Origin: a virus
Taxonomy: Duplodnaviria; Heunggongvirae; Uroviricota; Caudoviricetes
IMG/VR virus record: IMGVR_UViG_2526164632_000018
Length of the DNA stretch: 5,343 nucleotides
Direction: 5' to 3' (one strand)
Part shown: positions 778 through 2,091 of the stretch, piece by piece
How positions within the stretch are numbered: position 1 is the stretch's first letter
Layout of the letters: every line of letters starts with the position of its first letter
Notes under the pieces: model-generated
Seen by the model: the letters and a program-made list of their open reading frames with translations, nothing else
Told to the model about the DNA's origin: nothing
Database searches by the model: none
Translations under genes and position numbers: made by a program

Positions 778-2091
778 TCATTCTCCTGTTCTGCCTGTAT
801 CACTGCCCACTTCATTCAGCCCCTTAACATCCTGCCACGGCCCGTCACCAAACCTGACCTGCAAATGCTGAAACAGCCCCTGAACCTGTGTGGCATCTTT
901 GGGGTCAAGAAAGGTCAGTCCGGTGATGAGTGCGCCATCTGTATCCGGGAACCAGCCATTGCTGTTTGTCTCAATAATGCTCGCCGGCCCCAGACGAAAA
1001 CGGATTTGTGTCTCCCCCGGGTCGCCCTTTGGTCCCTGAGGTCCGGTTGCCCCCACCGGGCCAGCCGCACCTGTTTCTCCTTTCGGTCCCTGTGGGCCTG
1101 CCGGACCTGCCGCACCGGTATCTCCCTTTGGACCCTGTGGACCTGCATTTCCCGTCAGACCGGTCTCTCCCCGCTCTCCCCTGTCGCCTTTCGGCCCCTG
1201 CGGGCCTGCCGGACCAGCATCACCTGCCGGTCCCCGCTCACCGGTTGCCCCGACAGGACCGGTGTCGCCACGCTCTCCTTTATCTCCCTTCGGCCCCTGA
1301 GGACCCGCGGGCCCCGGTTCCCCCTTTGGCCCGGGAGGTCCCACCACGGTGGGGATTCGGTTTACGGCGTCTTCCGCCGCTATCCTGCTTTGTTCCGCTG
1401 ACTGTGCGCTTTCTGCTGACTCCCGGGCTTTTTCTGTTGCGGTCGTTGCATCCCTGGCTGCATTACCGGCTGCACTTTCTGCCGTCTTTCTTGACAATTC
1501 AGCTTCTGCTGCACTTTGTGATGACTCACTGGCTTTTTGAGCGGCCGCAGAAGCCGAGGACGAGGACGCATCCTCTGACTGCTTTGCTGAGGCTGCACTT
1601 TCTGCCGCCTGCCGGGCTGACTCCGATGCCTCCCCTGCTGAAGTGTCAGCATTTGCAGCGCTCTCTTCTGCCTGACTGGCTGATATGCCGGCATTCCTCG
1701 CTGACGTCTCCGCCTCTCCGGCATTCTTCTTCGCCTCCTCAGCGTTACGCGCCACCTCTTCCACCATCAGTTCAAAACGGCGCAGTGCCTCCGGCCGGAC
1801 ATCATCCTCCGTCATTGCACCGAGGAAATCATTCAGTGTGCCCGGCTTTGAGTCCTCATACACGGTGATAATCCCGGCGTGTGACGGCGGAAATCCCTCC
1901 ACCAACAGACTGACGCTGTACTGTCCGTACTCAACGTCCATGCTGTAACGCCCGGCTTCATCCGGATTTTCTGAGGCCAGGGTGTTCACCACCACCGTGG
2001 TGCTGTTACGTCTGGCTTTCAGCTGAATTGTGCAGTTCTGTACCGGTTTTCCTGTGCCGTCTTTCAGTACACCTGAAATCTTTACTGCCAT
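778..2091 (-). CDS. stf: Side tail fibre protein (lambda Stf-like N-terminus) with an Ala/Ser/Glu-rich linker, a collagen-like Gly-X-Y triple-helix region and a short distinct C-terminal domain
   Basis: N-terminus [37 protein letters not shown]… is near-identical to lambda Stf as I recall it. The start is probably the ATG at 2089-2091 preceded by GGGGTGAAT (the track's ORF begins at an upstream GTG at 2097). The long ORF occupies the position after lom, as in lambda. Confidence 0.9.
1012..1341 (-). repeat. Collagen-like coding repeat: about 36 uninterrupted Gly-X-Y triplets ([19 protein letters not shown]…[11 protein letters not shown]) inside the tail-fibre gene
   Basis: Direct reading of the translation; at DNA level this is a GC-rich run of GGN-CCN-NNN codons, which also explains the spurious Pro-rich ORFs on the opposite strand. 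Confidence 0.85.

Follow-up and report, generated by a model that had tools for sequence, protein, structure and literature searches.

A collagen-containing tail fibre gene of the EPclA family and the small PfC gene downstream of it

Does the tail fibre gene in a 5,343 nt stretch of Caudoviricetes DNA (IMG/VR record IMGVR_UViG_2526164632_000018; this whole stretch is called the window here) encode a new type of fibre, and does the tip of this fibre decide which host is recognized? The gene is located on the minus strand at positions 778..2091. It is an open reading frame (ORF) of 437 codons followed by a TGA (ATG at 2091-2089, TGA at 780-778), and its product matches the Pfam families PF08400, PF01391 and PF06820. 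The ORF list for the window starts the gene at an upstream GTG (2097), the PGAP and phage 434 annotations use the ATG. The first-pass annotation of the window described a new mosaic, in which the N-terminal anchor of the lambda side tail fibre Stf is fused to a linker, a collagen-like triple helix and a novel tip that was thought to contact the receptor. Here, we report that a lambda-like siphovirus prophage very probably uses this protein as its side (lateral) tail fibre, which is of the EPclA type and likely acts as a non-essential accessory adhesin, with the central fibre J setting the specificity.

The Fibre Belongs to the EPclA Family

By all sequence-level criteria tested, namely PfN, PCoil, a single collagen run and PfC, the protein belongs to this family. 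EPclA (enterohaemorrhagic Escherichia coli (EHEC) prophage collagen-like protein A; e.g., ECs2717 of O157:H7 Sakai) has 437 amino acids, including a coiled coil of 116 and a collagen segment of 111 amino acids (Ghosh et al., 2012, PMC3368898). The primers used to clone EPclA (PMC3368898) match the window exactly at 2091-2065 and 807-781, which correspond to both ends of the gene. The protein shares with EPclA its length, the order and lengths of the domains and the position after J and lom. It is 96.3% identical to the VT1-Sakai copy, and the differences are point substitutions only, for instance N427, where most relatives have D.

Over all 437 residues the fibre is 96-97% identical to those of 434, 2B8, Evi, 2851, BP-4795, VT1-Sakai and many phages encoding the Shiga toxins (Stx) Stx1a or Stx2c; the values for the side fibres of the plaque-forming phages 434 (UMO75364.1), 2B8 and Evi are 96.6-96.8%. 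In phage 434 the likeness extends to the surrounding DNA: window 294-2860, which comprises the block of lom, fibre and 89 amino acid gene with its flanks, is 96% identical. The first-pass annotation had stated that an end-to-end match to a well-characterized fibre of known receptor would leave nothing novel. We found the match to a characterized fibre, but no known receptor for it. Therefore the novelty of the architecture is gone, and the question of the receptor remains. What had been taken for a new mosaic is a known protein: lambda-like prophages of E. coli encode it as a side tail fibre with a collagen segment, and it had already been purified and characterized in 2012.

Recombinant EPclA forms trimers with a genuine collagen triple helix, as seen by circular dichroism, size-exclusion chromatography with multi-angle laser light scattering, analytical ultracentrifugation and electron microscopy (PMC3368898). 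The triple helix is approximately 30 nm long and has a melting temperature of 42°C, and the coiled coil is a trimeric alpha-helical rod that melts at approximately 52°C (PMC3368898). The isolated PfC trimerizes and renucleates the collagen helix, which enables quick refolding (PMC3368898). In the electron microscope EPclA is a hinged dumbbell of 55-62 nm, in which the PCoil, defined by Ghosh et al. as 116 residues (residues ~134-250), accounts for approximately 16 nm (PMC3368898).

Such genes are common. About seven are present in each of the O157:H7 genomes of Sakai and EDL933 (Ghosh et al., PMC3368898). Counting copies that cover at least 80% of the fibre and small ORF region, the locus is present in 693 of the 5,426 complete E. 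coli genomes, and a single genome can have up to 16 matching places. The window is one more copy of a protein found, often more than once per genome, in about an eighth of the complete E. coli genomes, and as such it matters little. The ligand of the conserved collagen fibres, their retention by Stx and effector prophages of attaching-effacing pathogens and the role of the 89 amino acid protein are questions for the whole family, and answers to them would bear on the spread of Shiga toxin and type III effector genes from strain to strain.

Domains of the Fibre Protein

The N-terminal part of the protein resembles that of lambda Stf, as the first-pass annotation had seen for the first ~115 residues. 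Residues 1-133 match PF08400 (PfN, E 1.6e-69), and in a BLASTP comparison with lambda orf-401, the N-terminal half of Stf, the fibre is 76% identical over 160 amino acids (E 1e-79), residues 1-117 being almost identical. No similarity to orf-401 was found past residue ~160 in this protein comparison. On the DNA level the homology to lambda ends at window position 1742, corresponding to residue ~117; orf-314, the distal half of Stf, was included in the region used for the DNA comparison rather than compared separately. Residues 1-94 (1810..2091, minus strand) match the StfN "collar" beta-sandwich (residues 1-94 of the chain "Tail fiber protein" in PDB 9E7M/9MGH, E 5.8e-51).

The next stretch is rich in Ala, Ser and Glu, as had been reported: residues 95-250 contain 44 Ala, 25 Ser and 24 Glu among 156 residues (60%). 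It had been described as a linker that replaces the shaft, but the pattern of these residues is that of a coiled coil, which in EPclA is a trimeric rod (PMC3368898). Residues ~102-248 (1348..1788, minus strand) can be arranged in 21 heptads of a single register with Ala at the second and fifth positions, which is the predicted Ala-core PCoil. The power of the 3.5-residue periodicity of Ala is 3.96, compared to a mean of 0.42 for shuffled sequences (approximately ninefold), and was reached by none of 2,000 shuffles. The register begins at residue ~102, earlier than the PCoil start of Ghosh et al. (~134). An Ala/Ser-rich coiled coil also follows the collar in lambda Stf (PMC12617516). Since it is located at the same place, the difference from lambda is limited to the distal part of the shaft and does not extend to the whole of it.

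The coiled coil is followed by the collagen triple-helix domain (residues 251-361; 1009..1341, minus strand; Pfam Collagen E 3.3e-18). The collagen run seen in the first-pass annotation is present, and the exact number of unbroken Gly-X-Y triplets is 37 instead of about 36; Pro occupies the X position in 18 of them. The coding DNA contains a 45 bp unit in two copies with 82% identity, and one peptide of 10 residues occurs three times in the collagen. The repeated DNA unit and the recurring peptide offer substrates for unequal recombination.

The C-terminal domain of 76-77 amino acids (residues 362-437; 781..1008, minus strand) is present and starts with the residues given for it in the first-pass annotation. 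It had been regarded as novel and not assignable to a family, but it is the PfC knob: PF06820 (Phage_fiber_C) matches with an E-value of 1.1e-35 and 122.3 bits, compared to a gathering threshold of 25 bits, the core of the match being residues 363-426. An AlphaFold2 monomer model of the last 77 amino acids is all-beta and has a pLDDT of 58. A sequence search of the PDB with this region gave nothing credible (best E 0.28). According to the phi24B preprint (10.64898/2026.04.10.717836), AlphaFold does not yield a confident model for the PfC C-terminal domain.

Exchange of Modules and Length Variants

Two breakpoints in the DNA, at residues ~117 and ~255, support the modular shuffling of tail fibres that the first-pass annotation had invoked. 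The first breakpoint is the end of the homology to lambda and the second the start of a block common to the short-tailed Stx2 phages. Window 458-1326, encoding collagen, the C-terminal domain and the 89 amino acid protein, is 93% identical on the DNA level to the short-tailed Stx2 phage VT2-Sakai, whose fibre anchor differs. EPclB/gp61 of the short-tailed Stx phages (Sp5 ORF67, 933W L0121, phi24B gp61) has the distal collagen, the PfC knob and the downstream 89 amino acid gene in common with the window at 93% DNA identity; it differs as a protein of 645 amino acids with another N-terminal anchor, which binds a podovirus adaptor ring, and with two collagen segments separated by a Pf2 repeat.

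With lambda Stf the fibre has in common the collar domain, the start of an Ala/Ser-rich trimeric coiled coil, the position after J and lom and a hairpin before the start codon. Lambda Stf then continues with features of its own, a coiled coil of ~290 residues, a hinge and an OmpC-binding distal domain of the T4 gp37 type, and it depends on Tfa. The fibre described here has instead a shorter coiled coil, the collagen and the PfC knob, and the 89 amino acid PfC-only gene is found in place of tfa. Thus, of the features of the full-length lambda Stf family the collar domain is present, but the gp37-like distal domain and a downstream tfa are not. What the fibre shares with lambda Stf is confined to its N-terminal third.

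Relatives also differ in length. The fibre of YYZ-2008 has 389 amino acids and a shorter collagen. The fibre P0217 has 374 amino acids and is thus 63 amino acids shorter, with the gap inside the coiled-coil region. Collagen lengths in the family span 63-144 amino acids (Ghosh et al., PMC3368898).

Conservation of the Fibre Tip and Variability of J

The last 77 residues had been proposed as the likely host-range determinant. In that case, the PfC knob would contact a strain-specific receptor and would be the primary determinant of host range. PfC is the distal end of the fibre, and distal fibre domains usually bind receptors. Ghosh et al. suggested that PfC binds to the cell surface (PMC3368898), and EPclB of the short-tailed Stx phages had earlier been proposed to bind BamA/YaeT. 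However, the tip is nearly invariant: it is at least 91% identical over hundreds of phage records of both siphovirus and podovirus morphology. The tip sequences recovered cluster at more than approximately 75% identity, and the divergent matches that were inspected are frameshifted or chimeric fragments. For the last 77 codons of the fibre gene the pooled pairwise ratio of non-synonymous to synonymous polymorphism (pN/pS) is 0.23 (six distinct sequences), and no hypervariable patch was seen in them.

The neighbouring J gene shows the opposite. For window 2861-3263 (minus strand), which lies within the C-terminal receptor-binding region of J, no DNA match exists in either lambda or phage 434, although its flanks match 434 at 96%; this block is replaced even in comparison with phage 434. 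Among phages, the identity of the last 150 residues of J ranges from more than 99% to less than 60%, and the residues encoded here are 99% identical to those of several Stx2a phages and CP-1639. The exchanged specificity module of this locus appears to be the tip of the central fibre and not the side fibre. The phi24B preprint (10.64898/2026.04.10.717836) also argues against binding of the tip to BamA and cites work on the near-identical 2B8 fibre as showing no binding of the BamA of MG1655.

Because the tip is conserved across long- and short-tailed phages while the adjacent tip of J varies, a main role of PfC in host range is doubtful, and on conservation grounds we consider it unlikely that the knob is the host-range determinant. 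A conserved ligand, or a mainly structural role in the trimerization and registration of the collagen, fits the tip better.

The 89 Amino Acid PfC Gene

One base past the stop codon of the fibre gene, in the +1 frame, lies a gene for a protein of 89 amino acids (507..776, minus strand). The protein has a second PF06820 domain (E 4.2e-35, 120.3 bits; PHROG 576), which is 39% identical to the PfC of the fibre and is preceded only by a short N-terminal segment (MNILKKLMQRLCGCGK...). An AlphaFold2 monomer model of the protein has a pLDDT of 53. The ATG at 776 is preceded at a distance of 6 nt by the Shine-Dalgarno sequence AGGAG (783..787, minus strand), which lies inside the final codons of the fibre; the phage 434 annotation lists it as a ribosome-binding site. 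Translation of the small gene is coupled to that of the fibre gene, and terminator-like hairpins bracket the pair. The same pair with the same spacing of 1 nt is found in 434, 2B8, YYZ-2008, VT2-Sakai, AU6Stx1 and in draft genomes, and a decayed copy of it in Citrobacter rodentium.

The small gene is the only part of the locus that has some potential for novelty. A full-length copy is present in 293 of 296 phage records, and the gene is co-inherited with the collagen-PfC block in two phage morphotypes. Its pN/pS, pooled over sequence pairs, amounts to 0.20 across the entire gene and to 0.08 in the PfC part (10 distinct sequences), values that are indicative since the pairs are not independent; purifying selection is stronger on the PfC part than on the fibre tip with its 0.23. 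This is indicative of strong purifying selection on the gene, a pattern unlike that of a decaying remnant. Database annotations of the gene conflict, naming it an assembly chaperone (phage 434), a tail fibre or a +1 frameshift variant (AU6Stx1). The copy in Sp5 (ORF68) is non-essential, and a function as a sequence reservoir was suggested (Mondal et al., PMC5155283).

The 89 amino acid protein might be a dedicated partner of the fibre tip, either as a trimeric cap that would sit on the PfC knob of the fibre and form the real receptor-binding surface or as a donor that would vary the tip by protein exchange or recombination. Natural fusions and chimeras of the two PfC copies do occur in databases. 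By eye, no consistent pairing of fibre-PfC type and small-gene type was seen across 10 loci. We regard this idea as tentative and rather improbable. If it were true, the protein would be a new kind of tail fibre tip or assembly factor, unrelated to Tfa/gp38. One chimera, the 92 amino acid protein P0178 from an NCBI contig of 37 kb, joins the N-terminal half of the 89 amino acid protein to the C-terminal half of a fibre-type PfC, which points either to recombination of the PfC copies with each other or to a mis-assembly. The motif LCGCGK of the 89 amino acid protein was also considered as a lipoprotein signal; this was rejected by eye, as the preceding hydrophobic stretch is too short and includes an Arg.

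Fibre and small gene could also in part be translated as one polypeptide by a programmed +1 frameshift, which would result in a variant or tandem PfC tip. The 89 amino acid ORF is indeed in the +1 frame of the fibre, and in most relatives this frame is open for 46 codons upstream of the ATG. The GenBank annotation of AU6Stx1 proposes a slippery site and a pseudoknot for a fusion of the two. In Stx2a_JNE121036 (LC727860.1, 1248-2867), a 1 nt change of frame within PfC fuses both ORFs to one of 540 amino acids, in which the second half of the fibre PfC is replaced by the PfC of the small gene; this is either a real variant or a sequencing error. Furthermore, the distant protein P0233 contains four tandem PfC-like modules. 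In the window, however, a TGA at 816-818 closes the +1 frame a mere 13 codons ahead of the ATG. This stop results from the same substitution that gives N427 (AAT) in place of the D (GAT) of most relatives, and it reduces the open overlap from 46 to 13 codons. No +1 slippery motif such as CUU-UGA or CCC-UGA could be recognized on reading the 13 open codons. The small gene has its own strong AGGAG and ATG, and no frameshift signal was found in Sp5 (Mondal et al., PMC5155283). A literature search on a frameshift or a receptor for this fibre returned nothing specific. As the +1 frame is closed 13 codons upstream and no slippery motif was seen, we rate frameshifting at this locus as very unlikely.

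Virion Fibre or Bacterial Adhesin

Collagen-like proteins also serve bacteria as adhesins to host tissue, such as Scl of streptococci and Lcl of Legionella, and the fibre might do the same for the lysogen. The collagen segment gives sub-threshold matches to the models of these adhesins, and the gene adjoins lom and type III effector cargo. In lambda, lom is expressed in lysogens. A putative promoter motif described by Ghosh et al. (TGTTATGAC) is located at 2138-2130, upstream of the fibre gene. Nevertheless, the matches to the Scl1, Scl2 and Lcl models reach 70-85 bits, compared to NCBIfam cut-offs of 325-500, and cover the Gly-X-Y region only. No signal peptide or anchor was noticed by eye, without use of a signal-peptide predictor (the C-terminus is ...TGRTGE), and the N-terminal domain is a docking domain for the virion. 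In Sp5, an antibody against the homologue labels the phage tails (PMC5155283). Taken together, the protein does not look like a bacterial surface adhesin of the Scl/Lcl kind, and we give this reading hardly any probability.

Proposed Role of the Side Fibre

As a side tail fibre, one fibre would consist of three chains. The N-terminal collar domains of ~94 residues would dock at the junction of tail tube and tip, as in Ur-lambda, where the collar contacts gpV and gpM and is joined via linkers of ~10 residues to a trimeric coiled coil, and where the role of Stf is accessory (PMC12617516). The ~21 Ala-core heptads would form the proximal rod, followed by a hinge and by the 37 Gly-X-Y triplets as a collagen helix of ~30 nm. 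A small, all-beta, trimeric PfC knob would be located at the far end. Knob and coiled coil would act as two trimerization modules that bring the collagen helix into register and nucleate it. Trimer, triple helix, coiled coil and the trimerization of PfC were demonstrated with a near-identical protein, and the docking of the collar with lambda.

The knob would be the only candidate site for contact with the cell surface. The fibre would speed up reversible adsorption, and the central fibre J would be responsible for host specificity and for triggering DNA ejection. We infer this accessory role by comparison with lambda Stf, and likewise a ligand of the knob and a function of the 89 amino acid protein as assembly partner or tip cap.

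Several points weigh against a side fibre with an accessory adhesin function. In the literature within reach, neither a receptor nor an adsorption phenotype has been demonstrated for any EPclA fibre, and the low-confidence models of the two PfC domains indicate no binding surface. The homologous fibres of the podovirus phi24B point back to the capsid, and the preprint describing them leaves their function open (10.64898/2026.04.10.717836). The EPclB homologue of Sp5 is essential for infectivity (PMC5155283), and therefore "accessory" may not fit every member of the family. In addition, this particular prophage may no longer produce virions. An IS2, which ends at position 293, lies 214 bp downstream of the 89 amino acid gene.

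Distant Relatives of PfC

A profile search with the PfC alignment against 1.84 billion representatives yielded 92 matches, almost all of them fragments of the E. coli type. Matches in proteins with SprB and CarboxypepD_reg repeats were judged to be compositional. Three proteins, P0254 (136 amino acids), P0233 (565 amino acids) and P0255 (938 amino acids), look like they contain genuine, distant PfC-like modules. The four tandem copies in P0233 end with ...VVVLDAD...ILQVRRADGTWxEIPALKG, and collagen comes after them. In P0255, ATHIQWRxGxGAWxNL units recur between short stretches of Gly-X-Y. PDB searches with P0255 and P0233 returned nothing, or collagen only. Beta-hairpins corresponding to the C-terminal half of PfC may thus be a widespread module next to collagen segments of phages.

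Layout of the Locus

Upstream of the fibre gene the window contains lom (2156-2755, minus strand) and the final 838 codons of J, the gene of the central fibre (2822-5338, minus strand), the ORF of which continues beyond the edge of the window. The order J, lom, fibre matches that of lambda and 434, and together with the small ORF it is the order annotated in E. coli prophages and phage 434. At the other end, the terminal part of the IS2 transposase is encoded on the plus strand (16-282). Between IS2 and the small gene, the type III effector gene nleB2 is reduced to its first 12 codons at 330-294 (minus strand; MLSPIRTTFHNS), severed by IS2; relatives have an intact nleB2. Where the window has IS2, phage 434 carries type III effector genes and remnants of such genes: an NleB-like pseudogene, NleC and a fragment of NleH are located just 3′ of the fibre pair (OL657227.1, 5263-8311). 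Through these effector genes and remnants, 434, a classical laboratory phage, is linked to the prophages with effector cargo in attaching-effacing E. coli.

A terminator-like GC hairpin with a T-run is located between lom and the fibre start (2102..2129, minus strand; −19.1 kcal/mol, z −2.6). It was noted in L003 at 4614-4640 and was found in six related loci, and the lambda version has another loop and a G-U in place of one G-C pair of the stem. It resembles an intrinsic terminator within the late operon and perhaps ends the lom transcript made in lysogens. A second terminator-like hairpin with T-run lies just 3′ of the 89 amino acid gene (464..489, minus strand; −19.5 kcal/mol, z −3.4); it was identified by direct reading and is absent from the output of the consensus terminator scan. 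A further terminator-like hairpin is present between J and lom (2785-2804, minus strand).

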